Below are positions 7,804 through 58,278 of a DNA stretch of 64,000 nucleotides, in pieces. How positions within the stretch are numbered: position 1 is the first letter of the stretch; each line of letters starts with the position of its first letter. The notes beneath the pieces are model-generated. The model saw only the letters and a list, made by a program, of their open reading frames with translations, did not search any database and had not been told where the DNA came from. The DNA comes from Pyrinomonadaceae bacterium (GTDB lineage Bacteria > Acidobacteriota > Blastocatellia > Pyrinomonadales > Pyrinomonadaceae). The stretch covers positions 342 through 64,341 of the forward strand of contig JAYVKL010000045.1 in NCBI GenBank assembly GCA_043768465.1, written 5' to 3'. The translations under genes were made by a program, and so were the position numbers.

Positions 7804-7820
7804 TTTTTAATGGATAGTAC

Positions 7821-7932
7821 TTACGCAGTTGAAACATTATTGAACGATTCTTTATTGAAAATAAATGACTTACGGTAAAGTAGCACTTTCCAAAATGCCT
7901 GCAAATCGTTGATTTTTCGTTCAACTGCGTAA
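7821..7932. repeat. Rep-C element copy 1 (TIR TTACGCAGTTGAA ... TTCAACTGCGTAA)
   Basis: 13-nt terminal inverted repeats shared with 33336-33450 and 46007-46128. The interior differs from the other two copies. Confidence 0.7.
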
Positions 7933-7940
7933 CTCCTAAA

Positions 7941-10769: not shown

Positions 10770-10871
10770 GCTTTCACTCTTCGTTCTGAGTTCAAACTTC
10801 AGTTTGTTCTTCCGCCAGCGAAGCGCAGCGGCAACACGCTCAAGCGTGAACTCAGAACGAAGAACGAAAGC
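10770..10871 (+). repeat. Rep-A element copy A
   Basis: gctttcactcttcgttctgagttca-CAAACTTCAGTTTG-..CCGCCAGCGAAGCGCAGCGG..-CACGCTCAAGCGTG-aactcagaacgaagaacgaaagc. Terminal inverted repeats enclose three sub-hairpins. Confidence 0.8.
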
Positions 10872-14396: not shown

Positions 14397-14408
14397 TATA
14401 AATTGAAA

Positions 14409-14523
14409 AAAGGTCAAAGGTAAAAGGTCAAAGGCTTATCAAATCGTTTGATCGTTAATTTGATTTCAGAGATGACTTTTCAACGTTCATCATTTTGACG
14501 TTCTTACCTTTGACCTTTGACCC
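14409..14523. repeat. Hairpin with AAAGGTC heptamer arms and ~65-nt loop
   Basis: aaaggtcaaaggtaaaaggtcaaagg ... cttacctttgacctttgaccc, in the divergent ImmA-like/pgsA spacer. Confidence 0.7.
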
Positions 14524-14591
14524 GTTTCCTTGACACTGATTCGCTCTGAAACCTACACTTGGACTTTACCGGTAAACGAAGTTTTAGCATT

Positions 14592-18982: not shown

Positions 18983-21424
18983 TTAAAATCCGAAACTCAA
19001 ACCGATTCTGCCGTTGCGATCAAACGTGCGAAAGCCATTTTCGTAATAATTGTCGCCGAACAGATTTTCAATCGTGCCGAAGACGCGCAGATTAAAGCGT
19101 TCGCCTTTCAAAGGGAAATTATAGCCGCCCGTCAAATCGCCGCGCCGGTTGCCGCGAAAGCGATAAATATAGGTCGAAAAATTCTGCCCGCTGAAAATCG
19201 GCGCGAGATAATCGCTCGACGCGAGCAAGTCGAAATTCACCCAGGCGCGTTTGAACCGCTGCGTCGCCACCAACGTAAATTGATGTTTCGGAATTCCCAA
19301 AGTTTCGATGTTTCGATTGGAAGCAACCTGCGGAACGCGCTGGTCGCTGTTCGTAAAAGTGTAGGATGCGAAAATGTCAGTCGAGTCGGTGGCGCGAGCT
19401 TGCCCGCTGAATTCGCCGCCGCGAGCGATGCCGCCTTTCGTGTTCAAATAACCGCCGAAATCGCGCCGCGTTGTTCCGATATTCGGGACGACGTTGCCGA
19501 AACCAATCGTCTTAATCAATTTCGTATAGAAATAAACCGCCGTTAATTTGGCGCGATTGCCGAACAAATTTTGTTCGATGCCGCCGTCAAAAGCGATGGT
19601 TTTTTCCGGCTTTAGATTCGGGTCGCCGAGTGCTTCAAAACGCGGGTTAGTGTCAGGAAAGGTGAAAGTATTGTAAAAAGTTCCGAAACGTTCAAAAAGC
19701 GACGGCACGCGGTAGCCGTTGCCGACGTGAGCGCGGATTTTCGTTCCCGAACGGTTGAAAAAATACGAAGCCGCGCCGTCAAAAGTATAGGCGTTCGGCG
19801 GATTCGCCAGCGTCAGATTCGTGTAAGGCGCATTATTCAAACTGAAGCTCGGCGTTTTCAGATTGAAAAATTGAGCGCGAAAACCGCCCGCCAATTGCAG
19901 TCTGTTTCTGAATAATTTCAAGAGATTCTGCGCGTAAATCGTGTTGCTCGACTGTTTGGCGCGGGCGAAAAAATTGTTCGTGCCGCTCGGCGTGAAACCG
20001 TCGTTGCCGTATTTTTCGTTCTCGAATTCGTAGCCGACGGTCGTCTCAAGGTAGCGGCTCGGTGTCCAATTTAATTGCCCGTTCGCCGTATTTATCAAAC
20101 CTTTGAAAACGCTCGTCGAAGCACTCTGAAAACCGCTGCCGAGAATGCCGTTGTCGTTTTTGCGCCGCGTTCGCAAGCCTTGATACGAAGCGCGAAAAAA
20201 TAATTTGTCGGTGATAACCTGGGTCAGCGCGAGTTGTCCGACCAAGGTCTGCGATTTTTGAAAAGCGTCCGGGTCGTTTACGTCCGGGAGAAAGTTGGCG
20301 TTGCCGCGATTCGTAACATTTTGCCCGTTATCGAGACGTTTCAACTGTTCACGCGAAAGCGGCACGGCATCGAGAATTTCCGAGGCTGAAGGAAAAACTG
20401 CACCGAAAAAGGTATCGGGACTCGAATTCAAACGGACGTAAGCGTCGGTGACGAAAATTCTGCCGGAGATGTTGGTTTTAGAAAACGGATTGTATTCGAC
20501 GCGAGTTTGAAAATTCGTGTTGTGCGCGTCGTCCTGCCCGTCAATTCCTTTGGTGTAAACCGTCCGCGCACCGCCGACGTTAAAGCCGATTTTGCCGTCT
20601 TTTGTGCCGTCGGAAATGTTGGCGCGAAAGCGTCCCAAACCGTAACCGCCGAACGCGCCGCCGACTTGTCCGTGAAAGCCGGGCTGCGGTTTCGGAGTCT
20701 GAAAATCAATCGTGCCGCCGACGGCGTTCGTGCCGTAAAGCGACGAACCCGAACCGCGCAGAACTTCGATTCGATCAACGCTCGTCAATGTAAAATCCGA
20801 CAAAAACGGCGACGCATCGCCCGTAATCGCCGCCGCGTCCCGAAACCGAATCCCGTCAATCAAAATCGCCGTATCCTGATTTCGCAAACCGCGAGTTTTG
20901 ATATTCGCCGTCCGCCCGAAACCGCCGAGCTGCTGAACGCGAAAACCCGGAATCGAGCGCAACGATTCGACCAAAGAGAAATCGGCGCGGTCGCGTAATT
21001 CCTGCGCCCCGATGATGTTGACGGTTTTGGAAACTTCGTCGAGCATTTGCGTTGTGCCGGAGGCAATCACCGAAACTTCTTCTCGGATCGGTTGATAAGA
21101 ATTTATTTGCAGATCAACTGTTTCCAGTCCTTCGTATAGCAAATTAACCGTTATCGTCGGCGAAACTCCGTTTTTATTTTCTCGAACCCGACTTGCCGAC
21201 AGGAGATATTTTCCCGCCTGCATTCCGCTGAAATTATATTCACCGTTTGTATTGGTTGAGGTTGTGTATTTAACTTTATTATCCTTTTCAGAAATCAAAG
21301 TAACTGTTGCATTAGCGATTACGCCATTTTCACCAGTAACTTTCCCTTTCAGATAAATGCTTTCTTGTGCAAAAATTCCGATTGTCAAAAAGCAAATTAA
21401 ACTTAAAACTTTTATAGTCTTCAT
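18983..21424 (-). CDS. TonB-dependent outer-membrane receptor with carboxypeptidase-regulatory-like N-domain (probable BtuB-type cobalamin receptor)
   Basis: 813 aa. Signal peptide, CarboxypepD_reg-like segment (TVTLISEKDN...TNGEYNF), plug (VSKTVNIIGAQELRDR ... RVQQLGGFGR), beta-barrel and terminal ...GLSFGF. The cobalamin assignment comes from the riboswitch immediately upstream. Confidence 0.85.
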   Translation of the reverse strand: MKTIKVLSLICFLTIGIFAQESIYLKGKVTGENGVIANATVTLISEKDNKVKYTTSTNTNGEYNFSGMQAGKYLLSASRVRENKNGVSPTITVNLLYEGLETVDLQINSYQPIREEVSVIASGTTQMLDEVSKTVNIIGAQELRDRADFSLVESLRSIPGFRVQQLGGFGRTANIKTRGLRNQDTAILIDGIRFRDAAAITGDASPFLSDFTLTSVDRIEVLRGSGSSLYGTNAVGGTIDFQTPKPQPGFHGQVGGAFGGYGLGRFRANISDGTKDGKIGFNVGGARTVYTKGIDGQDDAHNTNFQTRVEYNPFSKTNISGRIFVTDAYVRLNSSPDTFFGAVFPSASEILDAVPLSREQLKRLDNGQNVTNRGNANFLPDVNDPDAFQKSQTLVGQLALTQVITDKLFFRASYQGLRTRRKNDNGILGSGFQSASTSVFKGLINTANGQLNWTPSRYLETTVGYEFENEKYGNDGFTPSGTNNFFARAKQSSNTIYAQNLLKLFRNRLQLAGGFRAQFFNLKTPSFSLNNAPYTNLTLANPPNAYTFDGAASYFFNRSGTKIRAHVGNGYRVPSLFERFGTFYNTFTFPDTNPRFEALGDPNLKPEKTIAFDGGIEQNLFGNRAKLTAVYFYTKLIKTIGFGNVVPNIGTTRRDFGGYLNTKGGIARGGEFSGQARATDSTDIFASYTFTNSDQRVPQVASNRNIETLGIPKHQFTLVATQRFKRAWVNFDLLASSDYLAPIFSGQNFSTYIYRFRGNRRGDLTGGYNFPLKGERFNLRVFGTIENLFGDNYYENGFRTFDRNGRIGLSFGF

Positions 21425-21444: not shown

Positions 21445-21655
21445 CGCGGAAGTGGTTTCGGTAATAAACAAGCCGCGTAAAGTTCCCGACTTTGCGATTT
21501 TAGATTTTAGATTTTGGATCGGAAGATTCGCCAACTCTAAATCTGAGCCACTGAAATCAAACAATCCAAAATCCAAAATCGGTAATCTAAAATCGCCTTC
21601 ACGGTTGCGTGGGCAGTCGCGGATTTGCGCCGCGTTCCTTTGCGCCGGTTGCTCG
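21445..21655 (-). promoter_or_regulatory. Cobalamin riboswitch (leader of the TonB receptor gene)
   Basis: Minus-strand reading gives aaaGGAAcgcGGCGcaAATCCgcgaCtGcCCaCGCAACcGTGaagg. A long hairpin follows at 21496-21594, then the B12-box-like AAAGTCGGGAAC... This parallels the riboswitch at 24600-24806. Confidence 0.7.
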
Positions 21656-21656
21656 T

Positions 21657-21738
21657 CTTTGTTCTGAGTTCAAACTTCAGTTTGCTTGCCGCCAGCGAAG
21701 CGCCGCGGCTTTTGCACGCTGAAGCGTGAACTCAAAAC
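21657..21738 (+). repeat. Rep-A element copy B
   Basis: ctttgttctgagttca-CAAACTTCAGTTTG-..CCGCCAGCGAAGCGCCGCGG..-CACGCTGAAGCGTG-aactcaaaac. Abuts the ATPase stop codon. Confidence 0.8.
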
Positions 21739-21739
21739 T

Positions 21740-22510
21740 TTAGTAAATCGTCGTCATTCGTCTTTTTCCGCTCGCCGGATTTTCGTCGAGCAAAACTCTG
21801 ACGTTGAAAACCTCCTGTAAGTTTTCGCGGGTCAAAACCGTTTCGGGCGCACCTTTTGATAAAATCGCGCCGTTTTTTAATAAAATAATTTCGTCGGCAA
21901 ATTCCGATGCCAAATTCAAATCGTGCGTGATAACGATTGCCGCGCTTTCGCAGCTTTCGCAACGCGACTTTATCAGGCGAAACAGCAACACCTGATGCGC
22001 CAAATCGAGATTTGCCGTCGGTTCGTCGAGCAGTAAAATTCGCGCTCCCGTCGTCAAAGCTCTGGCTAGAACGACGCGCTGCCGCTCGCCGCCGGAAAGC
22101 CGGTTCATCAAACGATTTTCGTAATTCGTCAAATCGCACTGCTCTAAATTACTCAAAGCAATCTGCCAATCGTCGCTCGTTTCCCAACCGAAAGCCGCGC
22201 CGTGCGCGAATCTACCTGCCAGCACGAATTCTAAAACCGACACGGGAAAACTCGTTTCCGTTTCTTGCGCGATAACGGCGATTTCGCGGGCGATTTCGCG
22301 GCGGGAAAAATCTTTGACAGGTTTGCCGTTTAATAAAATTGTGCCTTTCGCTACCGGCAAACCGCCGTTCAAAGATTTCAGAACCGTTGTTTTCCCTGCG
22401 CCGTTCGCTCCTAATAGAGCGATGATTTTCCCCGTTTCCAATTTAAACGAAACGTCCTGCACGACCGCAAACACGCCGTAGTTTATCGAGATGTTTTGAA
22501 CTTCGAGCAT
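21740..22510 (-). CDS. ABC transporter ATP-binding protein (BtuD/FecE type)
   Basis: Walker A GANGAGKTT, signature LSGGERQR, Walker B ILLLDEP. Confidence 0.9.
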   Translation of the reverse strand: MLEVQNISINYGVFAVVQDVSFKLETGKIIALLGANGAGKTTVLKSLNGGLPVAKGTILLNGKPVKDFSRREIAREIAVIAQETETSFPVSVLEFVLAGRFAHGAAFGWETSDDWQIALSNLEQCDLTNYENRLMNRLSGGERQRVVLARALTTGARILLLDEPTANLDLAHQVLLFRLIKSRCESCESAAIVITHDLNLASEFADEIILLKNGAILSKGAPETVLTRENLQEVFNVRVLLDENPASGKRRMTTIY

Positions 22511-24599: not shown

Positions 24600-24806
24600 C
24601 CAAACGTCCTGACGCGGGACGATTTTCGGCTAAAAAACTTCAGACAGGTTTCCAGACTTTGCAATTAGCAGTCATCAGTTAGCAGTTATCATAAAATCAA
24701 AATGATAACTGCTAGCTGATGACTGCTAATTGCTTCACTGTGGCGCGACCGTGCGGGATTGACACCCGACTTTCCCATATCTTTGCCGCTTTTTTCAAAA
24801 AGCGGC
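24600..24806 (-). promoter_or_regulatory. Cobalamin riboswitch (leader of the btuF/C/D-like operon)
   Basis: Minus-strand reading gives GGGAAagtcGGGTGtcAATCCcgcaCgGtCgCGCCACaGTGaagc. A 73-nt hairpin follows at 24661-24733, then the B12 box AAAGTCTGGAAACCTGTC (24660-24641). Downstream is a terminator-like stem ctgcctt...aaggcag plus U-run (~24490-24535). Confidence 0.8.
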
Positions 24807-24977
24807 GCATCCGAAGCGTTTTAGGCTGAAAAGAACAAACCGAAATTTACCGACGAATCTGTAAATAAGGTGAAAGGCAACTTAGCACGATGAATCGTCA
24901 CAAGTCAAAAGCAATCGAATTTTGCGCTGATTTTGCTTGATCTTCGGCTTCGCTTGCGGCTATCCTGAAAAGGTCGA

Positions 24978-26297
24978 ATGAACCGAAACATCAAAAATTT
25001 TATGGAAGAAACCGAAAACGTGATTGCGGTAATTTTAGGCGGCGGCGCGGGTTCCAGACTTTTCCCGCTGACCAAAGAACGGGCGAAACCGGCGGTTCCG
25101 CTCGGCGGTAAATATCGTCTGATTGACGTGCCGATTTCCAACTGCATCAATTCGAGCGTAATGCAGATTTTCGTTCTCACGCAATATAATTCCGCGTCGT
25201 TAAATCGTCATATCTCCAGAACCTATCGCTTTTCGAGCTTCTCGACCGGCTTCGTCGAAGTCCTGGCGGCGGAGCAGACCAAAGACAACCCGGAATGGTT
25301 TCAAGGAACGGCGGACGCGGTGCGCCAAATGCTGCCGCATATCCGTGACTGGCGCGTGAAAACCGTTTTAATATTGTCGGGCGATCATCTTTACCGGATG
25401 GATTACCGTAAATTTCTCGAACGTCATCACGAAACCGCCGCCGATGTGACGGTTGCCGTCATTCCCGCTAATCCGTCGGACGCGGAAGGTTTCGGACTGC
25501 TCAAAACCGACGCGGACGGGCGCATCGTCGAGTTTAAGGAAAAGCCGAAAGGCGCGGCTCTCGAAGCGATGCGCGTGGACACGACGCGGTTCGGTTTAAC
25601 AAAGGAAGAAGCGGCGAGCCGTCCGTTTCTGGCTTCGATGGGAATTTACGTTTTCAATTATCAAAAATTAGTCGAACTGCTTGACGAAGACCGAACGCGC
25701 TTTGATTTCGGCGGCGAAATTATCCCGTCGGCGATTGAGAAATTGAATGTCCAGGCGCATCTTTTCGACGGTTACTGGGAAGACATCGGGACGATCCGAG
25801 CATTTTATCAGGCGAATCTTGATCTGGCATCGCCCTTGCCGAAGTTCGATTTTTTCAACAACGACGACCCGATTTACACGCGCAGCCGCTATCTGCCGCC
25901 GTCCAAAGTTCACGCCTGCGACGTGGATAATGCGATGATTAGCGAAGGCTGTATTCTGAACGGCGTTTACGCGAGAAATTCGATTATCGGTTTGCGAAGC
26001 CGCATTGACGAAGGCACCCGGCTTGAAGATTCAATCGTGATGGGCGCGGATTTTTTTGAATCGCTCGACGAATTGGAAGACAATCTCGCCAATCGCCAAC
26101 CGCACGTCGGCATCGGTAAAAATTCGATTATTCGCGGCGCGATCATTGATAAAAACGCTCGCATCGGCAACAACGTCCAACTCGTCAACAAATATGACGC
26201 GGAAATCGCCGACGACGCAAACGGCTGCTGGTTCATCCGCGACGGCATCGTCATCGTCCCGAAAGGCGCGATTATTGTTGACGGAACTGAAGTTTAA
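24978..26297 (+). CDS. glgC: Glucose-1-phosphate adenylyltransferase
   Basis: [45 protein letters not shown], plus the C-terminal left-handed beta-helix region. Confidence 0.9.
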
Positions 26298-26354: not shown

Positions 26355-26452
26355 GCCCTCTTCGCGTCAGAGTCCACGCTTGAGCTTGTTCTTCCGTCGC
26401 GCTTCGCTGCCGGAGCAGACAAACTGAAGTTTGGACTCTGAACGAAGAAGGC
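26355..26452 (-). repeat. Rep-A element copy C (inverted orientation)
   Basis: gccctcttcgcgtcagagtcca-CGCTTGAGC-..CGTCGCGCTTCGCTGCCGG..-CAAACTGAAGTTTG-gactctgaacgaagaaggc. Confidence 0.8.
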
Positions 26453-26540: not shown

Positions 26541-27743
26541 CTATTTTGAAGCCCGTTCATTCTCGCCGACGATATAGCTGTTTTTCGCGCGCACGACTAA
26601 ATTCGGGCGTTTGACGCGGACGCGAATGGCTTTGCGCTCGCCCTTCGCGCCGACCGTTTCCGGGTAATATCCCAAAGAATACTGGCGGCGCAGTTCCTCG
26701 GCGATGCCGGAAAACGCCGCGTCCAGATTGTTGTTCGCTTCAAATTTTCTGCCGCCGCTGCTGCGCGCCAACGCTTCCAGATATTGTCTGCCCGTTTCAT
26801 ATTCGGCGCGTGTTCCGCCGCCGCCGCCGCTCGGAAAATTGCCGCCGTTGATTCCGATAGTGCCGCCGCTTAAAATATCGCCGAGAATGCCGCCCCAGCC
26901 GCCGCCGCGCCGCTGGCGTGGATACGGACTCGGATAATTGCCGCCGCTGCCGGCTCCCATTTCCGTCGAAGTATCGTAGCGCACCGGAAAGAAAAGGGCT
27001 TCGGTTTCTTCGGCGGCGCGGATGCTGCTTTGATAATCAGCCCGCCTCGAGGTCGTATCCACGCCGTCGGTGAACAAAACGACCGCCTTGCGTCCTTCGA
27101 TGCGCGTCAGTTCCCGATTGATAACGTAATCAACCGCTTCGTAAAGCGATGTGCCGTCGCCGAATCGCGTCCGTCGAATCGCATTTCTGAGCGCGTTGCG
27201 ATTGTTCGTCGCCGGACTCAGGATATTGACTTTCTCGTCAAACGAAATCACCATCACTTTATCGTTTCTCCCCAATTGGTCAACGAAAGCGATTGCCGCG
27301 TCCTGAATTTCATTGATTTGAAACTTCGTCGAAGGGCTGACATCGAGCATCAAAATCACCGTAAACGGAACTTCGACCGAATTGAAACTGTCAATCTGCT
27401 GCTGTTTGCCGTTCTCGAAAATCTGGAAATCCTCTTTTTTCAAGCCGGTGATAAATCTGCCTTCGCGGTCAATCACCGAGACGGGAAAAGTTACGAGATT
27501 CGTTTCAATCTTAATAACATCGTTGTCTTCCTCGATCACTTCGGCATTCGCCGGCGCGGGCGGCGCGGGCTTTCTCACCTCGCCCTTCAAAACCGGCGGC
27601 TGTTTTGCCGCCGTCGGATTTGGCGAATCGCTCGACGGCGCGGGATTCGGCACGATACGCGGGCGCGTCGAACGTGCGGTTTGCGCCGCCACCGGCAGCA
27701 GAAAAACCCCCAAACACACTAAAATAACGGCGTATCTTTTCAT
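26541..27743 (-). CDS. Secreted VWA domain protein
   Basis: Start placed at ATG 27743 (MKRYAVILVCLGVFLLPVAAQ signal peptide). VWA core (VILMLDVSPST ... VVLFTDGVDT) and a Gly-rich segment. Same architecture as 257-1402. Confidence 0.8.
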   Translation of the reverse strand: MKRYAVILVCLGVFLLPVAAQTARSTRPRIVPNPAPSSDSPNPTAAKQPPVLKGEVRKPAPPAPANAEVIEEDNDVIKIETNLVTFPVSVIDREGRFITGLKKEDFQIFENGKQQQIDSFNSVEVPFTVILMLDVSPSTKFQINEIQDAAIAFVDQLGRNDKVMVISFDEKVNILSPATNNRNALRNAIRRTRFGDGTSLYEAVDYVINRELTRIEGRKAVVLFTDGVDTTSRRADYQSSIRAAEETEALFFPVRYDTSTEMGAGSGGNYPSPYPRQRRGGGWGGILGDILSGGTIGINGGNFPSGGGGGTRAEYETGRQYLEALARSSGGRKFEANNNLDAAFSGIAEELRRQYSLGYYPETVGAKGERKAIRVRVKRPNLVVRAKNSYIVGENERASK

Positions 27744-27886
27744 AACTTCTGAATTCTCCAAACAATTATCGTCGGCGTTGGGAAGAGAATTTTTTGATTG
27801 TCGTTTGGTGTTTTTAGATGTCTTAAACTTTCGTTTCGGCAAGTTGAGTCAGGATTAAGCCGTAAGTTTTCATAAAGTCGGAACGA

Positions 27887-28996
27887 TTATCTTTCGTCCA
27901 GCATTTCCGCCGCTAATTCGTGAAACCGGCGGCGCACGGCATTGATGTTGGCGAACGGCAGTTCGCGGGCGTGCGTGCGGTTGGTCAGCAAAATAAAAAT
28001 CCGTTCGCTTTCCGGCTCAATCCACAGCGAAGTTCCCGTAAAACCTAAATGCCCGAAACTGTCTTTTGATAAAGCGTCCGAAGCCGTCGAATCTTTCGTC
28101 GCGCCGAGTTGAAACGCGATGGAACGCGCTTCGTTCAAATTCGGCGTGAAATTCGTGCGAAACAATTCGCACGTTTCCGGCTTTAGCAGAGTCGTCTGAT
28201 TCGCCAGAAACTGTTGCGCGATTACGAAAGTTTCAAACGCCGTTGAAAAAAGTCCGGCGTGTCCCGAAACGCCGTTCATAAAATAGCAATTGCCGTCGTG
28301 AACTTCGCCCCAAATCTGATATTCGCGCCATTTATATTTTGAAATGTCGAAACCTTTTTCAACGCACATTTGCTTTTCGTATTCATTCCCCTTTTCGCTG
28401 GCGGCGATTCTCTTTTGTAATTCAGGCGGCGGGTTATAAAAAGTATTTTGCAAAGCTAAAGGCGCGAAAACTTTTCTTTCAGCAATTTTGTCAATTCTTT
28501 CGCCACAGAGTCTTTCAAGTAAAAACGTCAAGGTTATAAAATTCAGATCGCTATATGTAACTGTCTGCTGATCCCAATTGAAAGGCGTTCTAATAATTTC
28601 CGCGAGAACTTCTGCACGATTTCTAGCTGATAAGTAAAAAGGTTTCCAAGCCGTATAGAAGGATTTATGCCCAAGCAATTCCTCAATTAGAACATCGTTT
28701 ATAAAGTTGCAGTTCAATTCAAATTCAGACAAATAAAAATCAATAAATTTTTCTAAATGCAGTTCGCCGCGTTCGATCAATTTCGCGCACAGCAAACCCG
28801 TTACGAGCGGTTTCGTCAAACTCGCCAAATCGTAAATCGTATCGAGATTCGCCGCAATTTTTTCCGGTTCGACAACAGCGAAACCGAGCGCATCGGTGAA
28901 AACGACTGCGCCTTTTTCCGCGACGAGATAGACGGCGGACGGGAAATCCTTCGCTTCGATGCGCGATTGCAGAAAGTCGGAAATTCTATTTTCCAT
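27887..28996 (-). CDS. Serine hydrolase, beta-lactamase/transpeptidase-like family
   Basis: SxxK motif in IYDLASLTKPLV. C-terminal HLGFTGTSLW (KTG-like region). The central ~95 codons (DNA ~28480-28770) are visibly AT-rich. Confidence 0.8.
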   Translation of the reverse strand: MENRISDFLQSRIEAKDFPSAVYLVAEKGAVVFTDALGFAVVEPEKIAANLDTIYDLASLTKPLVTGLLCAKLIERGELHLEKFIDFYLSEFELNCNFINDVLIEELLGHKSFYTAWKPFYLSARNRAEVLAEIIRTPFNWDQQTVTYSDLNFITLTFLLERLCGERIDKIAERKVFAPLALQNTFYNPPPELQKRIAASEKGNEYEKQMCVEKGFDISKYKWREYQIWGEVHDGNCYFMNGVSGHAGLFSTAFETFVIAQQFLANQTTLLKPETCELFRTNFTPNLNEARSIAFQLGATKDSTASDALSKDSFGHLGFTGTSLWIEPESERIFILLTNRTHARELPFANINAVRRRFHELAAEMLDER

Positions 28997-29018: not shown

Positions 29019-29113
29019 GCCCGGCTTCGTTCAGAGTCCACGCTTAAGCGTGTTTCCGCCGCGCTTCGCTGGCGGAAGAACAAACTAAAGTTTGGACTCT
29101 GAACGAAGCAGGC
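29019..29113 (-). repeat. Rep-A element copy D (inverted orientation; best-preserved copy)
   Basis: gcccggcttcgttcagagtcca-CGCTTAAGCGTG-tttCCGCCGCGCTTCGCTGGCGGaagaa-CAAACTAAAGTTTG-gactctgaacgaagcaggc. Confidence 0.85.
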
Positions 29114-29145: not shown

Positions 29146-30144
29146 CTAAACATTCAAACGACTGCGATGCTTTTCGATTTTGTCCAATACGCCCAACGCC
29201 AAACTCAAGGCGCGTCTGCCGTCTTCGGCGGTAATCGGCGGCGTTTTATCATTGGTGATGCAATCCAAAAACGCCGTAATTTCGGCGCGGAGCGGTTCGA
29301 CATCAACGATTTCCAAGCGATTGACCGAGATTCCGAGTAGCGGATGAATCGCGTTCGGCGCGAGTGATGTCACGGACGCGAATTTCGTCGCGTAATCTAA
29401 AACGACGTAAGAATTCGTTTGATAAAAGCGCGTTTTGCGAATCTTTTCCGTGCCGATTCTGGAAGCCGTGATGTTGGCGACCGCGCCGTTTTCAAACTCG
29501 ATGCGGGCGTTCGCAGCATCAACTTTGTCGGAAATAACCGGAATGCCGACGGCGTGAATTTCGGAAACTTTGACATCTTCGCCGACCAGCCACTGAACCG
29601 CGTCCAAATCGTGAATCATCACGTCCAACACGACATCAACATCCAAACTGCGATTCGGAAATGGCGAAACGCGATGAATCTCGAAATATAACGGGCGATC
29701 AACGTGCGGGCGCAGCGCGATCATCGCCGGATTGAATCTTTCCAAATGCCCGACCATCAGTTTCGCGCCGGATTTGGCGGCGGCGGCAATCATCAAATCG
29801 GCTTCATCCAGAGTTTTCGCAAACGGCTTTTCGACCAATACGTTCACACCGTTTTCGAGAAACGCGCAGGCGATTTCGCAATGCGTTTCAGTCGGCGTAA
29901 CGATGGAAACCGCATCAACTTTACCAATCATTTCGCGCCAATCGGTGAAAAACGCGCAGTTGTTTTTCTCGCCAATCGAACGCGCATTTTCTTCGTGTTT
30001 ATCGCAAACGCCGACGAATTCACTGTCGCCGTTTTGAGCGATTTCCGCGTAATTGCGGGCGTGATGCTGACCGAGCGAGCCGACCCCGACGACGGCGGTT
30101 TTTTGAATCTGGAATTTGGAATCTGGAATCTGTATTTCGTGCAT
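29146..30144 (-). CDS. Gfo/Idh/MocA-family NAD(P)-dependent oxidoreductase
   Basis: Rossmann motif VVGVGSLGQHHARNY, EKPFAKTLDEADLM and a C-terminal GFO_IDH_MocA_C-like region. The first 14 codons are encoded by GGAATCT-type heptamers (HEIQIPDSKFQIQ). Confidence 0.85.
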   Translation of the reverse strand: MHEIQIPDSKFQIQKTAVVGVGSLGQHHARNYAEIAQNGDSEFVGVCDKHEENARSIGEKNNCAFFTDWREMIGKVDAVSIVTPTETHCEIACAFLENGVNVLVEKPFAKTLDEADLMIAAAAKSGAKLMVGHLERFNPAMIALRPHVDRPLYFEIHRVSPFPNRSLDVDVVLDVMIHDLDAVQWLVGEDVKVSEIHAVGIPVISDKVDAANARIEFENGAVANITASRIGTEKIRKTRFYQTNSYVVLDYATKFASVTSLAPNAIHPLLGISVNRLEIVDVEPLRAEITAFLDCITNDKTPPITAEDGRRALSLALGVLDKIEKHRSRLNV

Positions 30145-30236: not shown

Positions 30237-31988
30237 ATGACGGAAAATCCAAAATCCAAAATCCAAAATCCAGGATCCAGAATCCTTTGGCTGCTGTTCG
30301 CGTTGCTGATTGTCTTCGTCTATTTTTTCGGCTTGACGCTTCCGCTGTTGGGTCCCGACGAACCGCGTTACGCGCAGGTCGCCCGCGAAATGTATTTGCG
30401 CGGCGATTGGATTACGCCGACGCTCGGCGGTTTCGACTGGTTTGAAAAACCCGCGCTGCTTTACTGGCTCGAAATCGCGTCGTATAAAATCTTCGGCGTT
30501 TCGGAGTTTGCGGCGCGTTTCGGTTCGGCGGTTTTCGGGTTGGGAACGATTGCCTGTTTGTGGATTTTGGGGAAATCGGTTTCAGGTTTCAGGTTTCAGG
30601 TTTCAGGTGAAAAGATAGAAATCCTAAAGCAAACGTCTGAAATTCAGAAACCAGAAACCAGAGACCTGGAACCAGAAACCAGAAACCTGAAACCTGAAAC
30701 CAGAAACCTGAAACCTGAAACCTCCGTTTTTGCCAATTGGCTGGCTTTGATCGCCGCGTCATCAATTGGTTTGATCGTCTTTTCACGCGGCGCGAGTTTC
30801 GATATTATCCTCACTTTTCCGATTACCGCTGCGCTGGTTTGCTATTTTCTTTTTGAATCTTTGCTCCAAAAGCATTATTTTTGCGCCGTCCCGAATTCAA
30901 TTGTTCTTTCGAAATCTACGGCGGCAAACCTGATCGCTGCCGCGCCGCCGATTGCCTGGGCGAGCTTGTTTCTCGCCGGTTTTTACTTTTTTATCGGTTT
31001 CGCATTGCTTGCCAAAGGCCTGATCGGGTTGATTTTCCCGCTTACCATCGTGTTTTTTTATCACCTTCTGAAGTTTGAACTGCTGCCGGGCAAAGTATTT
31101 CTCATCAGTCTGATTTGGGGAACGATTATCAGTTTGCTCGTCGCGTCAATCTGGTATCTGCCGATGTATCGGGCGCACGGCTGGAAGTTCGTGGACGAGT
31201 TTTTTATCCAGCATCAATTTCAGCGTTTCACGTCCGACAAATATCAGCATCAGCAGCCGTTCTGGTTTTTCTTCGTCGTTCTGCCGCTGATGACTTTGCC
31301 GTGGCTGCCGTTTTTTCTGGCTTCGATCTGGAATTTTTTCAAGGTTCAAGGTTCAAGGTTTAAAGTTCAAAGTTCAAGATTTAATGTTCAAGGTTCAAAT
31401 AATCTCTCGACTCTCGACTCTCGCCTCGCTCCTTTCGCCTTCGCGTGGCTCGCCGTGCCGCTCGTTTTTTTCTCGCTTTCCGGCTCGAAACTTCCCGGCT
31501 ATATTTTGCCGGCACTGCCCGGCGCAATCGTTTTAACGGCGATTTATGTGGCTGATTTTGTGCGGAAATCGCGGACGCGAACGCGTGTTTTGCAGATTGC
31601 GGCAGCTTCGACTTTTCTATTCGTCTTCGTCGGTCTGCAATTTTTCGCGGCGGATTATACAAATTACGAAACCGTCAAAAATATGATTGCGGCGGCGGAT
31701 GCCAAAGGCTTTGCCGATGCCGAATTCGTCAGTCTCTACACGGTTTCGCACAATCTCGAATTCTACGCCGCCGGCAGATTAGAACGCGACGCGGACGGCA
31801 AACTCAAACGCTACGACGATTTTTCCGTGTTGATAAAAGCGGTCAAAACGGCAGGCGACCAACGAATTTTAGTCGTCGTGCCGCAAGCCAATGTGCCGAA
31901 TCTGCAAAAGGAAAACGACTTGGCGGACATCGAAACGATTGCCGAAAACGGCGAATCAGCGATTATCTTGATTAAGCCGAAACGGTAA
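30237..31988 (+). CDS. Glycosyltransferase family 39 (ArnT/PMT-like) membrane protein
   Basis: GPDEPRYAQVAREMYLRGDWITP signature and more than 10 TM helices. Carries three heptamer-tract-encoded segments (N-terminus, 30577-30725 and 31340-31429). Confidence 0.8.
   Translation: MTENPKSKIQNPGSRILWLLFALLIVFVYFFGLTLPLLGPDEPRYAQVAREMYLRGDWITPTLGGFDWFEKPALLYWLEIASYKIFGVSEFAARFGSAVFGLGTIACLWILGKSVSGFRFQVSGEKIEILKQTSEIQKPETRDLEPETRNLKPETRNLKPETSVFANWLALIAASSIGLIVFSRGASFDIILTFPITAALVCYFLFESLLQKHYFCAVPNSIVLSKSTAANLIAAAPPIAWASLFLAGFYFFIGFALLAKGLIGLIFPLTIVFFYHLLKFELLPGKVFLISLIWGTIISLLVASIWYLPMYRAHGWKFVDEFFIQHQFQRFTSDKYQHQQPFWFFFVVLPLMTLPWLPFFLASIWNFFKVQGSRFKVQSSRFNVQGSNNLSTLDSRLAPFAFAWLAVPLVFFSLSGSKLPGYILPALPGAIVLTAIYVADFVRKSRTRTRVLQIAAASTFLFVFVGLQFFAADYTNYETVKNMIAAADAKGFADAEFVSLYTVSHNLEFYAAGRLERDADGKLKRYDDFSVLIKAVKTAGDQRILVVVPQANVPNLQKENDLADIETIAENGESAIILIKPKR
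30577..30725. repeat. Heptamer-arm hairpin (GGTTTCA / TGAAACC) lying in frame inside the GT39 CDS
   Basis: cggtttcaggtttcaggtttcaggtttcaggtg ... cagaaaccagaaaccagagacctggaaccagaaaccagaaacctgaaacctgaaaccagaaacctgaaacctgaaacc. It translates as [11 protein letters not shown]...KPETRDLEPETRNLKPETRNLKPET. Confidence 0.9.
31340..31429. repeat. Tandem GGTTCAA-type heptamers plus CTCTCGA units, in frame inside the GT39 CDS
   Basis: caaggttcaaggttcaaggtttaaagttcaaagttcaagatttaatgttcaaggttcaaat...ctctcgactctcgactctcgc. It translates as KVQGSRFKVQSSRFNVQGSNNLSTLDSRL. Confidence 0.85.
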
Positions 31989-32020: not shown

Positions 32021-32124
32021 TTTTGCTTCGTTCAGAGTCCAAACGCGAAACGCAATTTGTCTTCGTCCGCCAGCGAAGCGCGGCGGAAACACGCTGGAGG
32101 CGTGGACTCTGAACGAAGACCAAA
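32021..32124 (+). repeat. Rep-A element copy E
   Basis: ttttgcttcgttcagagtcca-AACGCGAAACGCAATTTG-..CCGCCAGCGAAGCGCGGCGG..-CACGCTGGAGGCGTG-gactctgaacgaagaccaaaa. Confidence 0.8.
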
Positions 32125-32301: not shown

Positions 32302-33282
32302 TCAATTTTGCGCCGCCCGTTTCAATCTGTCCGTTAAAGCCGCGCCGATTCCCGCATCCGCCACTGTTTCGCAATAAATCGTCTTGATATTCCGTCGGTC
32401 GCATTCCCGAAAAAAGGCGAAAACTTCGTGCGCGTATTCGTCAACCGACGCGCAAATTTTCACCGAATCAAACGGCTGATGCGGTTCATTTAATCCGATA
32501 AACGCGCTTGATCTGGAATCTGAAATCTGAAATCTGGAATCTGGAATTAAAACTACTCGCGCCGTCGGCGAATAATGACGATGTTTCAAACCCGGACTTT
32601 TCGGCGTTTCATCATTTCCGGCTTGATAATTTCGCGTTTCTGGAACGATCCTCTGCAAATCGCGCAGTGAAATCGCGCCGCTTCGCAAAACCAGAGGCGC
32701 GTTCGCAGTGCAGTCAACGACGGTTGACTCCAATCCGATTTCCGTCATTGCTCCCTTCAGAATGCAGTCAATCACACCGTCTAAATCTTCAAACACGGCT
32801 TGCCACGTCGTCGGCGAAGGCTTGCCCGAAAGATTTGCCGACGGCGCAACAATTGGCGTTTCGCAAGCCGTCAGGAATTCCCGCGCCAGTTCACTGCGCG
32901 GCATTCGCACGCCGATTGTTTCGAGATTCGCCGTCGCAAGCAAAGGCACTCGCGCCGCTTTCGGTAACACTAAAGTCAAAGGCGCGGGGAAAAACGCCGC
33001 GATAAACTTCTCCGCCGACGGCGTAACTTCGGAAACAAGAAGCTTGATTTGTTCCAGACTTCCGACGTGCGCGATCAGCGGATTATCGTTCGGTCGCCGT
33101 TTCGCCGCAAAAATTTTAGCAATCGCCGCCGCATCGAAAACATCTGCGCCCAAACCGTAAACCGTTTCGGTCGGAAACGCGACGATGCCGCCGCTTTTAA
33201 TAAATTCGGCGGCTTCAGTCGGCGATTCGGTTAGGACGGTTTTCATTTTCACAGTTAAAACTTTTACGACTTCATTATCCAT
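32302..33282 (-). CDS. L-threonylcarbamoyladenylate synthase (Sua5/YwlC type, YrdC domain + Sua5 C-domain)
   Basis: GGIVAFPTETVYGLGADVFD and IAHV motifs. The inter-domain linker contains the heptamer-encoded IPDSRFQISDSRSS (DNA 32510-32547). An alternative start is ATG 33246 (MKTVLTES...). Confidence 0.85.
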   Translation of the reverse strand: MDNEVVKVLTVKMKTVLTESPTEAAEFIKSGGIVAFPTETVYGLGADVFDAAAIAKIFAAKRRPNDNPLIAHVGSLEQIKLLVSEVTPSAEKFIAAFFPAPLTLVLPKAARVPLLATANLETIGVRMPRSELAREFLTACETPIVAPSANLSGKPSPTTWQAVFEDLDGVIDCILKGAMTEIGLESTVVDCTANAPLVLRSGAISLRDLQRIVPETRNYQAGNDETPKSPGLKHRHYSPTARVVLIPDSRFQISDSRSSAFIGLNEPHQPFDSVKICASVDEYAHEVFAFFRECDRRNIKTIYCETVADAGIGAALTDRLKRAAQN

Positions 33283-39695: not shown

Positions 39696-40730
39696 TTATC
39701 CGGTAATCAACACACAATCGCCGTAACTGTAAAAACGGTAGCCGGATTCGACCGCGTGGCGATACGCCCGCATCGTTAAATCGTAACCCGCAAACGTCGA
39801 AACCAGCACCAACAAGGACGATTGCGGCAAATGAAAATTAGTCAAAAGTCCGTTGATAATCTTAAATTTATAGCCGGGCGTAACGGTCAGATGCGCCGTA
39901 AATGCTCCCGCCGCGATGTGCGCGTTCTCGTCGGCGACCGATTCTAAAGCCCGCGTTGTCGTCGTGCCGACGGCGATTATTCGCCGGTTCCCGGCTTTTG
40001 CCCGGTTGATAATATCGGCGGCGGCATCGGAAATCTCGCCGCTTTCCGCCGACACTCGATGTTCCGACAAATCGGCGACGCGCACCGGTTCGAAAGTTCC
40101 GTAACCGACGTGCAAAGTGATTTCCGCGATTTCCACGTCGAGATTTTTGATTTCCGCCAAAATTTCCGGCGTGAAATGCAGTCCGGCGGTCGGGGCGGCG
40201 ACGGCTCCACGCTGTTTGGCGAAAACGGTTTGGTAACGACTTTTATCCGCCTCCGAAATGCCGTCGGCGCGTTTGATATACGGCGGCAAAGGCGTGCTGC
40301 CAACGCGCTCTAAAATCTCGTCGAGATCGCCGTCCGTTTTAAATTCGACGATGACGCGACCTTCGGCAGTGCGGTCGGTAACTGTGGCTGAAAGATTTTC
40401 GCCGAACGAAATTCGCTTGCCCGTTTTCAATCTTCGCGCCGGTTTTGCCAATGTTTCCCAAATCCGATGTTCGATTTCGCGCACTAGAAAAAGCTCGACT
40501 TTGCCGCCGGTTTCGCTGATGCCGAGCAGCCGCGCCGGAAAAACTTTCGTATTATTGAGAACGAGAACGTCGCCCTTTTTCAGAAACTGCGGAAAGTTGT
40601 AAAAGTGTTCGTCGTAAAAATTTTGCCCGCCGCGATCAACGATCAGCATCCGCGAAAACTCGCGTTTCTCCAAAGGATTCTGCGCGATCAAGGCTTCCGG
40701 CAGATTATATTCAAATTCTGAAATCAACAT
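39696..40730 (-). CDS. queA: tRNA preQ1(34) S-adenosylmethionine ribosyltransferase-isomerase
   Basis: MLISEFEYNLPEALIAQNPLEKR, PLPPYIKR, AAPTAGLHFT and SYGDCVLI. Confidence 0.95.
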   Translation of the reverse strand: MLISEFEYNLPEALIAQNPLEKREFSRMLIVDRGGQNFYDEHFYNFPQFLKKGDVLVLNNTKVFPARLLGISETGGKVELFLVREIEHRIWETLAKPARRLKTGKRISFGENLSATVTDRTAEGRVIVEFKTDGDLDEILERVGSTPLPPYIKRADGISEADKSRYQTVFAKQRGAVAAPTAGLHFTPEILAEIKNLDVEIAEITLHVGYGTFEPVRVADLSEHRVSAESGEISDAAADIINRAKAGNRRIIAVGTTTTRALESVADENAHIAAGAFTAHLTVTPGYKFKIINGLLTNFHLPQSSLLVLVSTFAGYDLTMRAYRHAVESGYRFYSYGDCVLITG

Positions 40731-40790
40731 AAAACAGATTTAATTATGCACCGTCTTGAGAAATTAGGCAGTCACGCAAAATTATCTTGA

Positions 40791-40860
40791 TGTTCAGAGT
40801 TCCAACTTTAGTTGGCTCTTAAGCGCGGCGAAGAACCAACTAAAGTTGGAACTCTGAACG
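40791..40860. repeat. Rep-A element copy F (short, degenerate)
   Basis: tgttcagagttccaactttagttggctcttaagcgcggcgaagaaccaactaaagttggaactctgaacg. Confidence 0.6.
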
Positions 40861-41151
40861 CGGCTTCGTTTTTTTATAAAAATAATTCTGTCTGACTGCT
40901 TAACAAAAATATGTCGTGAATTCATACAAACCTGCTTTATTTGTGAAGGTCGAGAATTTCAAACACTGAACAAATGCCGTGATTGATGAGCTTTTCCAAA
41001 GTGGAATAAATGTTGCTGTGGTCAAAAACCTGATATGTAGAATTTCAATATGAAATAAAATTCTGCGGCGATTTGTTTGGTGGATGACAGAAACAGATTG
41101 TCTGTTTTGTTACAAATAATAAAACACAGAACGAAAAAGGAGAGATGAATT

Positions 41152-41754
41152 ATGGAAGTAGATAAACAAAATTCGGGAACGATAAACCCGGTGACAGACA
41201 GCAAACCGGCGAGCGGTGAAACAGCGGCGGCAGTCAAGCCGATGGCGGAAAGAACGGCGGCAGGAAGCGGCGAATCAATCAAAGAGACATTGAATCAGGC
41301 AAAGGACGCTGCTGGACAAGCGGCGACGCAGGTTGTCGGACAGGCGAAGGAAAAAGCCTCGTCGCTGCTCGGCGAGCAAAAAACCAACCTGGCGGCGGGC
41401 ATTAACACCGTCGCCGACAGCATCCGGCAAATCGGCGAGAATTTGCAGGGCGGCGACGGCGGCGAAAAAAATCAGATTGCGGCGTTGGCGGGCAAATACG
41501 GCGATTCTTTAGCCGGACAAGTCGAAAAAATCTCGCACTACGTCGAAGACAAAAACTTCGGAGAATTGGCGCGTGATGCCGAACATTTTGCGCGGCGCAA
41601 TCCGGCGGTATTCGTCGGCGGCGCGTTCGCACTGGGAATTTTAGCGGCGCGATTTTTGAAAAGTTCCGGTTCGCAGCGGACAAATGGAAATCAGTTGTCG
41701 GGCAATTCAAACGGCAAAAAGGCTTTGAACAGAACGGCGGTGCAAGCGTCATAA
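41152..41754 (+). CDS. Hypothetical stress-cluster protein with C-terminal TM helix
   Basis: 200 aa, Ala/Gly/Gln-rich helical repeats, C-terminal RRNPAVFVGGAFALGILAARFL. First gene of a three-gene cluster with DUF1469-like and DUF3618-like genes. Confidence 0.5.
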   Translation: MEVDKQNSGTINPVTDSKPASGETAAAVKPMAERTAAGSGESIKETLNQAKDAAGQAATQVVGQAKEKASSLLGEQKTNLAAGINTVADSIRQIGENLQGGDGGEKNQIAALAGKYGDSLAGQVEKISHYVEDKNFGELARDAEHFARRNPAVFVGGAFALGILAARFLKSSGSQRTNGNQLSGNSNGKKALNRTAVQAS

Positions 41755-55986: not shown

Positions 55987-56691
55987 CTAAATGTAAAGTT
56001 CGTATTTTTCGACGTATTTTGCAACCTCGTCCGGCACGAGTTCGCGCCAATCTGTTTGATTATCACGAATTTTCTGTCGAATCTCCGTTGCCGAAACGTC
56101 GAGATTGACGGCATCGGTGAGGTAAATTTTAGTTTCTCGCTTCTCGTTTCTCGTTTCTCGCTTTCCATCTGAAACCTGAAACCTGAAACCTGAAACCTGT
56201 CCGCGTAAATCAACGATTCGGGCGCGAATCGCTTCCGTCACCTGTGAAAATTCGATTTCGTAATCGGGGCGCGTGACGACGATGATATTGGTCTGCGTTA
56301 AAACCGTTTCCCACTCGCGCCAGGTCGTGATTTCCGTCCAGGAGTCCGCGCCGATGACAAAGTAGATTTCCGCGTCGGGCAAATTATTTACCAATTTCGC
56401 CTGCGTTTCAAACGTAAAAGGCTTTTCGGGAGCGTCGAGTTCGATGGTGGAAATTTCAATTTTAGCTTCGTTCGCCGTCGCCAGACAAAGCATCGCGTAT
56501 CGGTGAAACGCCGAAGTCGGCTGGCGGTCTTTTTTGTGCGGCGCGTGAAAAGCCGGAATGAAAACGAATCGGTCGAGCGCGAATAATTCGATTGTTTTTC
56601 GCGCAATCGCCAAATGTCCGTTGTGAAGCGGATCAAACGAGCCGCCGTAAAACGCGATGCGCCCATGTTTCACCGATTTGTTAAAATTCAT
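55987..56691 (-). CDS. nadD: Nicotinate-nucleotide adenylyltransferase
   Basis: [15 protein letters not shown] (HxGH) and the C-terminal DVSATEIR (ISST-like). Start placed at ATG 56691, with GTG 56673 also possible. Contains a ~25-aa heptamer-encoded insert. Confidence 0.9.
56133..56199. repeat. Two adjacent heptamer tracts (TTTCTCG x4, CTGAAAC x4) in frame inside nadD
   Basis: tttctcgcttctcgtttctcgtttctcgctttcc + atctgaaacctgaaacctgaaacctgaaacctg. Translated on the minus strand as [25 protein letters not shown]. The second tract matches the right arm of the hairpin at 58279-58351. Confidence 0.9.
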
Positions 56692-57727: not shown

Positions 57728-57773
57728 TGATATTTTCGATTTTCGATTGACTATTGGTGAATTTCAGATTCGA

Positions 57774-57852
57774 GGTTTTGAGCTCAAACTTCAGTTTGCT
57801 TTCTGCCAGCGAAGCGAAGCAGCAAAACACGCTCAAATGTGAACTTAGAACG
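57774..57852 (+). repeat. Rep-A element copy G
   Basis: ggttttgagctca-AACTTCAGTTTG-..CTGCCAGCGAAGCGAAGCAGC..-CACGCTCAAATGTG-aacttagaacg, in the rpmA-obg spacer. Confidence 0.75.
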
Positions 57853-57970
57853 GTTGACAAAATAAAAACGCGCCCGCCAAACTTTTGAAGATTAGCGAGT
57901 CGCGCCGTTTGATTATGCGAATCTTGCGAAGAATAATTCGCTTGACCGCCAACCCAAATTCGCAAATTAT

Positions 57971-58267: not shown

Positions 58268-58278
58268 AATTCTGTTCA

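Follow-up and report, generated by a model that had tools for sequence, protein, structure and literature searches.

Rep-A is a dispersed palindromic element of about 80–100 bp that occurs seven times in a 64,000-nt stretch of a Pyrinomonadaceae genome (Acidobacteriota; GenBank assembly GCA_043768465.1, contig JAYVKL010000045.1, positions 342 to 64,341 of the forward strand), hereafter called the window. We conclude, with a probability of roughly 85%, that Rep-A, including the focal copy at 29019–29113, is an element of the REPIN type (repetitive extragenic palindrome (REP) doublet forming a hairpin), built as an inverted doublet of REP-like units and belonging to a family linked to REP-associated tyrosine transposases (RAYTs). 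The assignment is made because its units flank RAYT genes in loci that were found by protein similarity alone. REP and REPIN repeats are small DNA parasites without coding capacity, and the RAYT is the dedicated enzyme that copies them, acting on single-stranded DNA. The family is spread through Pyrinomonadaceae and Blastocatellia (Acidobacteriota). It is apparently an uncatalogued REP family, of known REPIN kind, with three non-canonical traits: its copies in the window lack the GTAG tag, its foot is built of heptamers, and it carries a third hairpin.

Rep-A consists of two inverted 24-nt units

The seven copies listed by a first-pass annotation of the window were confirmed by direct reading and by alignment on a common strand. 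All are inverted doublets, occur in both orientations and lie between open reading frames (ORFs) of ≥100 aa. A filter-free search of both strands of the whole window by a covariance model of 27 family members returned exactly these seven sites, with scores of 41–100 bits and E-values of about 1e-22 to 4e-8. The next-best match, at 58282–58348 (27 bits), was rejected as a copy, being an inverted array of GGTTTCA heptamers and thus another type of palindrome. In addition, a search for the foot 12-mer GTTCAGAGTYCA that allowed at most two mismatches counted 30 sites in the window, compared with 5.9 ± 2.5 in shuffled sequence.

The layout described by the first-pass annotation, with terminal inverted repeats (TIRs) enclosing three hairpins whose loops vary, held point by point on reading. 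Specifically, the outer inverted repeat reads CTTC-GTTCAGAGTCC (or GTTCTGAGTTC, the second foot variant) ... GGACTCTGAAC-GAAG, and encloses hairpin 1 (h1; CAAAC-TTYA-GTTTG), a centre hairpin (h2; CCGCC-A-GCGAAGCGC-GGCGG) and hairpin 3 (h3; CACGC-TNAA-GCGTG). The boundaries of about 80–100 bp are approximately right, as the palindrome runs on for ~12 nt outside the feet (ATTTTGC(TC)CTTC ... GAAG(AG)GCAAAAT). One REP-like unit of 24 nt, present twice in inverted orientation, makes up both 'TIR plus hairpin 1' and 'hairpin 3 plus TIR'. It consists of an 11-nt foot (GTTYAGAGTYC) and a 5-bp hairpin with a TTYA loop, and measures ~36 nt with a semi-conserved outer flank. The foot can be read as two heptamers, GTTCAGA and GTTCAAA. 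In the Rep-A subfamily, the arms are heterodimeric, with a CAAAC stem opposed to a CACGC stem, and the spacer between them is a GC-rich hairpin with GCGAAGC in its loop.

The motif GCGAAGC is present in six of the seven window copies, as the first-pass annotation had counted; in the whole window it is not enriched (20 occurrences, 27 expected). The oligonucleotide d(GCGAAGC) reportedly forms an unusually stable DNA mini-hairpin, according to Hirao and colleagues. Across the wider family, the middle region is variable and often holds a short unrelated hairpin, and centre variants include GCGCAGC, GCGAAAC and GCGCGAGC. The GCGAAGC centre is an accessory of one subfamily and not part of the RAYT-flanking units. 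With the doublets oriented by their arms, the window copies have GCGAAGC at the centre and many other genomes have GCTTCGC. Relatives of ~140 nt (L105, L011, L045, L072 and L010; loci are numbered by the scan described below) have their own GCGAAGC-type hairpin in each arm. The single centre hairpin of Rep-A may be the collapsed remnant of this two-hairpin form, and such a collapse would explain why both centre orientations are seen.

The local hairpins are under structural constraint

A Rep-A sequence can form either three local hairpins or one long hairpin. Minimum-energy folding of single copies as RNA gives mostly one long imperfect hairpin, while with DNA parameters two of four copies, copy 5 among them, fold as an outer stem with three sub-hairpins. 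Folding energies leave the choice between the two folds undecided, and therefore the structure was settled by pair counts on 27 Rep-A-type sequences. In the local-hairpin model, 91.8% of cells are paired (h1, 99.3%; h2, 95.6%; h3, 93.3%), the outer stem is 87% paired, and two pairs of the h2 stem are changed on both sides. The cross-paired long hairpin leaves three columns unpaired in 25–27 of the 27 sequences. As an isolated DNA oligonucleotide, the centre hairpin folds at −10.6 kcal/mol (z −3.5).

Because variation within Rep-A is limited, we turned to the wider family for covariation, using 212 unique units next to RAYT genes that had been picked by foot sequence alone, with shuffled sequences and a slid pairing partner as controls. 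Stems of these units are 90.6% paired, compared with 73.5% in shuffles (maximum 76%) and 11–39% with the partner slid; all five stem pairs form in 201 of 238 foot-selected units. Three stem pairs covary, namely 12–23 (AT 155, CG 35), 13–22 (AT 149, GC 35, CG 4) and 14–21 (GC 97, AT 56, CG 28, TA 4), with the foot and TTYA loop remaining constant. The local sub-hairpins are therefore genuine and under structural constraint, and the claim of the first-pass annotation that selection acts on structure, made from conserved stems, is strengthened by 93–99% pairing in Rep-A and by covariation across the wider family.

REP-like units flank RAYT genes

We scanned 185,579 species genomes for GTTCWGAGTYCAAACTT, which gave at least 114 stretches. 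Among the matches listed, almost all come from metagenome-assembled genomes (MAGs) of Pyrinomonadaceae, Blastocatellia or other Acidobacteriota. The order of foot and hairpin, spacer, hairpin and foot is common to the seven window copies and ~70 doublets of other genomes. Units occur as singlets, inverted doublets and tandem clusters, and the CAAAC type is the commonest (115 of 238 units with perfect local hairpin).

All ORFs of these DNA-selected loci were compared with a RAYT sequence as bait, and the match was then verified independently. The sole RAYT ORF among the matches listed is L007:5710–6309(−), which encodes 199 aa. Its product scores 24.9 bits against Pfam Y1_Tnp (cut-off 23) and 78.2 bits against NCBIfam REP_Tyr_transpos, slightly under the cut-off of 80, and matches E. 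coli TnpA-REP (PDB 4ER8) with an E-value of 2e-5. In 20 homologues, the HUH motif (H87-Y-H89) and N146-Y147, with the catalytic tyrosine, show no variation. A single unit lies to one side of the gene and a pair of inverted units to the other. A second gene considered as a transposase, bracketed by two Rep-A copies in L048, was discarded on sequence inspection as a gene of glycoside hydrolase family 3 type.

A protein-driven test gave the same picture on a larger scale. We retrieved 80 metagenome loci through similarity to the L007 RAYT only (58–87% identity) and found 237 units within 400 nt of the RAYT gene (4.15 per kb) and 10 elsewhere in the loci (0.05 per kb), an 81-fold enrichment near the gene. 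Among the 66 loci with at least 150 nt on both sides, units stand on both sides of the gene in 56, on one side in 8 and on neither in 2. The flanking units point their feet outward, with 98 upstream units on the plus strand and 90 downstream units on the minus strand, compared with 30 and 20 the opposite way. Seven further RAYT homologues, individually examined, show the same arrangement of flanking units. The flanking stems vary by locus (CAAAC, CAAGC, CAACC, CAATC, CCGCC, CCGAC and CCGGC). Both arm types of Rep-A are represented: CAAAC-type units flank RAYT genes in L007 and many of L115–L194, and RAYT P0014 of L196 is flanked by units with a GTCC foot and a CACGC stem (GTTCAGAGTCC-ACGC-TTTA-GCGTG), as in hairpin 3 of the window copies. 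At E ≤ 1e-60 there are 1,774 homologues of the RAYT, some of them labelled at source as REP-associated tyrosine transposase or as Pyrinomonadaceae or Blastocatellia transposase.

Several observations weigh against a REPIN-type element with a RAYT partner. In the window, which the first-pass annotation had correctly described as lacking a candidate transposase, the best tblastn match to a RAYT (E 0.026) is a DUF4149 protein, and gene calls in the 8.4 kb of contig past the window include no RAYT. Two protein searches and the seven homologues yielded RAYTs flanked by related units, the CACGC unit with GTCC foot in L196 coming closest, and no RAYT flanked by the exact Rep-A layout (CAAAC, GCGAAGC hairpin and CACGC), and a GCGAAGC hairpin stands beside a unit in 0 of ~90 RAYT loci. 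The GTAG tag is absent from the window copies, which read CTTC/GTTC; among the RAYT-flanking units, GTAG is found in 39 of 212 and G-N-A-G in about one third, and the tag lies 9 nt from the stem. The density of 0.05 units per kb outside the RAYT flanks means that high copy number is not universal in the family. As to movement, the strain contig L204 (99.5% identity, 11 kb overlap) keeps the one Rep-A copy in the overlap and differs there only in its heptamer number, and the orthologous intergenic site in the Pyrinomonadaceae MAG locus L056 is too diverged to be read as empty or filled, with a different heptamer palindrome on the window side. Because the GTAG tag occurs in a minority only, and 9 nt from the stem, the family is a non-canonical REP.

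Genomic setting and alternative origins

The coordinates, covariance-model matches and surroundings of the copies are collected in Table 1. The strand given for copy 4 is the one that reads from the CAAAC unit through the GCGAAGC centre to the CACGC unit.

Table 1. Rep-A copies in the window and parts of the focal copy
Feature	Position	Strand	Covariance model	Description	Surroundings
Copy 1	10770–10871	+	10777–10864, 94.4 bits	GTTCTGAGTTC foot variant	Between Peripla_BP_2 gene stop (10882) and DsbA-like gene start (10722)
Copy 2	21655–21744	+	21655–21744, 72.3 bits	Feet GTTCTGAGTTC / GTTTTGAGTTC	Adjoins stop of ABC ATPase gene 21740–22510(−), copy end 1 nt from the stop codon; upstream of sub-threshold cobalamin-riboswitch match 21480–21640(−), 26.6 bits, then TonB-dependent receptor gene 18983–21424(−)
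Copy 3	26355–26452	−	26358–26449, 77.3 bits	One foot degraded (CGTCAGAGTCC), one mismatch in hairpin 3	Between convergent genes 24978–26297(+) (glgC-like) and 26541–27842(−) (VWA)
Copy 4 (focal)	29019–29113	−	29023–29110, 99.6 bits	Complete REPIN-type doublet	27 nt upstream of start of beta-lactamase-family gene 27887–28996(−); 36 nt downstream of stop of GFO/IDH/MocA oxidoreductase gene 29146–30144(−)
Copy 4, CACGC-type REP-like unit	29029–29052	+		Foot GTTCAGAGTCC 29029–29039, stem CACGC 29039–29043, loop TTAA 29044–29047, stem GCGTG 29048–29052	
Copy 4, centre hairpin h2	29056–29075	−		CCGCC / A-GCGAAGCGC / GGCGG on the minus strand	
Copy 4, CAAAC-type REP-like unit	29081–29104	−		GTTCAGAGTCC-AAAC-TTTA-GTTTG on the minus strand	
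Copy 5	32021–32124	+	32024–32120, 70.4 bits	Hairpin-1 loop expanded	Between convergent genes 30237–31988(+) and 32302–33282(−) (Sua5/TsaC)
Copy 6	40786–40865	.	40786–40865, 53.8 / 51.1 bits on the two strands	CCAAC stems in both arms (homodimer), centre hairpin truncated	Divergent region between queA 39696–40730(−) and 41152–41754(+)
Copy 7	57769–57857	+	57769–57857, 62.1 bits	Most decayed copy	rplU-rpmA-obg cluster, between rpmA 57971–58267(−) and obg 56681–57727(−)

The neighbours are ordinary housekeeping genes. An integron attC site was rejected by inspection on this ground and on its ends, since Rep-A ends in GTT...AAC and not in RYYYAAC...GTTRRRY. An eighth copy, with a decayed left foot, lies at L206:2545–2633, on the same contig and 6 kb past the window, within the 8.4 kb examined there. 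The search for further copies that the first-pass annotation had proposed therefore returned this copy and relatives in other genomes, and the possibility it had allowed for, that no additional copies exist, did not hold. Decay is visible in copies 3, 6 and 7 and in the eighth copy. Over its first 11.4 kb, the window matches the ENA metagenome contig ERZ27314299 k141_2793683 (87,411 bp) with 100% identity, from contig position 384.

Six of the seven copies lie no more than ~120 nt 3′ of a stop codon, several of them within operons such as rpmA-obg; because copy 7 lies between rpmA and obg, Rep-A copies are surely transcribed. Moreover, six copies fold far better than shuffled sequence, with z-scores of −4.8 to −11. 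The focal copy has z −9.2 with RNA and −8.4 with DNA parameters; copy 6, a near-perfect 25-bp palindrome, folds at −46.3 kcal/mol (z −11.3); copy 7 (z +0.2) folds no better than shuffles. This setting and these folds, together with the covarying stems and the effects on termination and mRNA stability reported for REPs elsewhere (PMC6006769, PMC3733652), would fit a structured RNA module (a small RNA, a terminator or a 3′ hairpin that stabilises mRNA), in which selection acts on the RNA and the many copies come from repeated use of one regulatory motif. However, of 28 heterodimeric doublets located between genes of the same strand, 14 point one way and 14 the other relative to the upstream gene, and a divergent promoter region holds one of the window copies. 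Copies number 30, 14 and 9 in tandem, convergent and divergent spacers, roughly like the background of 250, 78 and 71. Furthermore, the centre hairpin flips between genomes, the hairpins are not followed by a U-tract, and an RNA function leaves the ~80-fold enrichment of units at a transposase gene unexplained. An RNA module is thus very improbable as the primary nature of Rep-A, and an effect on RNA is better taken as a possible secondary one than as a rival origin.

Neither strand of any Rep-A copy matches an Rfam family at the gathering threshold or at E ≤ 5, Acido-1 and Acido-Lenti-1 included, so the Rfam comparison proposed by the first-pass annotation gives Rep-A no known identity there. 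The real Rfam matches in the window are a tRNA and a cobalamin riboswitch, and weak miRNA-like matches mark other palindromes. The riboswitch, at 24626–24829(−), scores 38 bits, above its gathering score; the sub-threshold match next to copy 2 is the second of this kind.

A classical MITE (miniature inverted-repeat transposable element), an internally deleted insertion sequence of DDE type moved in trans, would share with Rep-A the small size, the dispersed intergenic copies in both orientations and the terminal inverted repeats of at least 16 nt, and a DDE_Tnp_1 insertion sequence does lie in the window at 59300–60689. The ends of this insertion sequence (TTTTTTAGAGCGTGTTTGAAAATTCA) are unrelated to Rep-A, however, and the Rep-A flanks are inverted rather than direct and form part of the palindrome, with no direct target duplications. 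In addition, the 'TIR' of Rep-A holds a covarying hairpin with a conserved loop, and single arms stand alone and in tandem arrays beside RAYT genes, as REPs do. The GTTCWGAGTYCAAACTT matches listed (at least 114) and ~90 RAYT loci included no element that combines Rep-A ends with a DDE gene, and a true MITE in the window, at 7817–7938, looks quite different. We regard a MITE origin as extremely improbable.

It is also conceivable that the host keeps the copies as sites of protein binding or genome architecture, used for example by gyrase, a nucleoid protein or a regulator that binds palindromes, their kinship with RAYTs being only historical. Foot and loop are indeed conserved across genomes whose RAYTs differ by up to ~40%, and PMC6006769 describes RAYTs as mostly single-copy and vertically inherited, suggesting a benefit to the host. 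Several window copies are decaying, however, which is unlike purifying selection site by site. Moreover, copy positions are not shared with L056, which is syntenic with the window over 13.8–17.9 kb (83–90% identity, 86% for the comparison of copy positions). A host-site origin is accordingly very improbable.

The proposal of the first-pass annotation, a MITE-, REP- or Correia-like mobile element or a structured RNA, with a single-stranded DNA intermediate conceivable, thus stands in its REP part, given the RAYT-flanking units and an enzyme of the HUH/Y1 kind that acts on single-stranded DNA; a MITE defined by TIRs and target-site duplications does not stand, and RNA as the primary nature is not supported.

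Two further observations concern the setting of units in other genomes. In L006 and L027, Pyrinomonadaceae-type MAG contigs, a single REP unit (GTTCAGAGTTCAAACTTTAGTTTG) lies ~15 nt upstream of the start codon of a putative pyrH (UMP kinase, named by eye from the N-terminal sequence); since two different genomes have it in this position, it is a conserved singleton of the 5′ leader. A further conserved stretch, ...CAAAACTTATGCTCACCTGC..., lies 3′ of several Rep-A-type copies (L013, L014, L059, L078, L005, L043 and L065). Since it recurs in several MAGs, some Rep-A-type copies may be embedded in a larger repeated unit or in a preferred target.

Comparison with known systems

We found no description of the Rep-A family in the searchable literature, where absence is no proof of absence; for the Acidobacteriota, the 2025 RepRanger survey reports no more than numbers of generic palindromes in three genomes. 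The closest likeness is to the GTAG heterodimers discussed below and to the REPIN-RAYT system of Pseudomonas fluorescens SBW25 (Bertels & Rainey 2011, PMC3116915; PMC3337134), in which two inverted palindromic REP units and a spacer can form one long hairpin, copies are dispersed and extragenic, units flank a Y1/HUH RAYT gene with their feet outward, and singlets, doublets and tandem clusters occur. Unlike in that system, the Rep-A stem measures just 5 bp and its 4-nt loop is conserved, a conserved foot of 10–11 nt separates the stem from any GTAG-like tag, the arms are heterodimeric (CAAAC and CACGC), the spacer forms a conserved hairpin of its own with GCGAAGC in the loop, and the host belongs to the phylum Acidobacteriota; the window copies carry no GTAG.

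The L007-family RAYT aligns with TnpA-REP (PDB 4ER8), the enzyme of the E. coli REPs and bacterial interspersed mosaic elements (BIMEs), over the core from HUH to Y, and the E. coli 'REPtron', a gene with flanking REPs (PMC6006769), has the same arrangement as the Rep-A family. In contrast to Rep-A units, E. coli REPs are GC-rich imperfect palindromes of 35–40 nt with GTAG directly at the foot of the stem. In TnpA-REP, GTAG is contacted by W94, Q95, E100, H101 and R104 (PMC6006769). The E. coli segment W-Q-P-R-F-W-E-H-A-I-R aligns with W-Y-N-C-F-E-R-A-M-K in the RAYT of the Rep-A family; if the aligned segment corresponds to these contact positions, W and E would be kept and Q, H and R replaced.

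The GTAG REP super-family (Di Nocera et al. 2013, PMC3733652) comprises small stem-loops with an unpaired 5′ tag, often located 3′ of genes and in some cases embedded in longer palindromes. As in Rep-A, they are mostly head-to-head dimers, many of them heterodimeric in stem or loop; the difference lies in the tag, which the Rep-A family has in the minority of RAYT-flanking units counted above and at a distance from the stem. The same study records GTAG repeats in Proteobacteria, Cyanobacteria, Chloroflexi and the PVC (Planctomycetes–Verrucomicrobia–Chlamydiae) superphylum and not in Acidobacteria, whose Y1 transposases it describes as 'TIRYTs' flanked by long TIRs.

Elements of the IS200/IS605 family (IS608, ISDra2) share with the Rep-A family a Y1/HUH enzyme. 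Their small imperfect hairpins are recognised on single-stranded DNA, and cleavage is guided by short 5′ sequences (PMC6006769), a layout that the long conserved foot 5′ of the small hairpin in the Rep-A family resembles. They are autonomous, with the transposase between two different ends, whereas Rep-A is geneless and its ends are copies of one unit.

Correia elements are intergenic palindromic repeats of ~100–150 nt that occur in both orientations and are co-transcribed with their neighbours; characteristic of them are TIRs of 26 bp, a TA target duplication and an IHF site, and they are not known outside Neisseria. Rep-A resembles them in size, intergenic position, palindromic form and use of both orientations, but shows none of these characteristic traits and has a RAYT-linked hairpin unit instead. 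A Correia identity was rejected, as no TA duplication is present at the Rep-A ends or flanks; the two are set apart here by these general features, not by consensus comparison.

Proposed route of mobilisation

The mechanism of E. coli TnpA-REP and of IS200/IS605 elements, summarised in PMC6006769, suggests how Rep-A could move. By analogy, the RAYT would recognise the small hairpin with its foot on single-stranded DNA, for example at a replication fork, and would cleave and rejoin the strand there, whereupon doublets would be excised or copied and would spread to new intergenic sites. The doublet would fold back when single-stranded, stabilised by the GC-rich centre hairpin. We infer from this analogy that mobilisation proceeds through single-stranded DNA. 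Where Rep-A hairpins lie behind genes or inside operons, they may affect mRNA 3′ ends or stability as a secondary effect.

A more specific idea is that recognition itself differs from that of known REPs: the RAYT would read the 10–11-nt two-heptamer foot together with the 5-bp TTYA hairpin, the stem would co-evolve with the RAYT clade, and the GCGAAGC hairpin would nucleate the fold-back. The co-evolution part was suggested by the stems CAAAC, CAAGC, CAACC, CCGCC, CCGAC and CCGGC, which track different RAYT loci. A reading of foot plus mini-hairpin would be closer to the guide-plus-hairpin logic of IS200/IS605 ends than to a GTAG abutting a long GC-rich stem. We consider this distinct mode of recognition tentative, with perhaps one chance in four in its favour.

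Other repeats and mobile elements in the window

Slippage expands heptamers at the REP foot or beside it: AGAACGA, at the right end of copy 1, is present twice in the window (10858–10871) and four times in L204:12440–12470. Palindromes composed of heptamer arrays, (GGTTTCA)n ... (TGAAACC)n, are found at 58274–58350, 30580–30730 and L206:7212–7285, with a GGTCAAA form at 14400–14525, and one of them stands between rplU and rpmA. These arrays are the source of the weak miRNA-like Rfam matches and of the 27-bit covariance-model match, and the foot heptamers may in turn be the source of the arrays. Runs of (GAACTCT)n adjoin the RAYT gene in L197. A run of GTTCAAG/GTTCAAA heptamers at 31344–31397 lies inside ORF 30237–31988(+), which also holds the palindrome at 30580–30730; the call or the start of this ORF may be wrong, or the repeats may be intragenic.

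The segment at 7817–7938 (~122 nt) is bounded by a direct repeat of 8 bp (AATGGATA) and has terminal inverted repeats of 13 bp (TTACGCAGTTGAA / TTCAACTGCGTAA). Present in the window and absent from the 99.5%-identical L204, it resembles an insertion polymorphism of a classical MITE without relation to Rep-A. The insertion sequence at 59300–60689, likewise unrelated to Rep-A, carries a DDE_Tnp_1 transposase ORF at 59405–60343(−) between 26-nt imperfect inverted ends.

Implications

The Rep-A family leaves the known REP mechanism unchanged. For genome work on Pyrinomonadaceae and Blastocatellia, the repeats explain breaks and mis-assemblies in metagenome bins, and they are a marker for strain typing. 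They also flag intergenic hairpins inside operons, as in rplU-rpmA-obg, that may affect expression. The more than 1,700 RAYT homologues with flanking hairpins of their own could be used to study how an enzyme acting on single-stranded DNA co-evolves with its hairpin target. The family also adds a REPIN-RAYT system for the Acidobacteriota, here Pyrinomonadaceae and Blastocatellia, which are abundant and little-studied soil bacteria.

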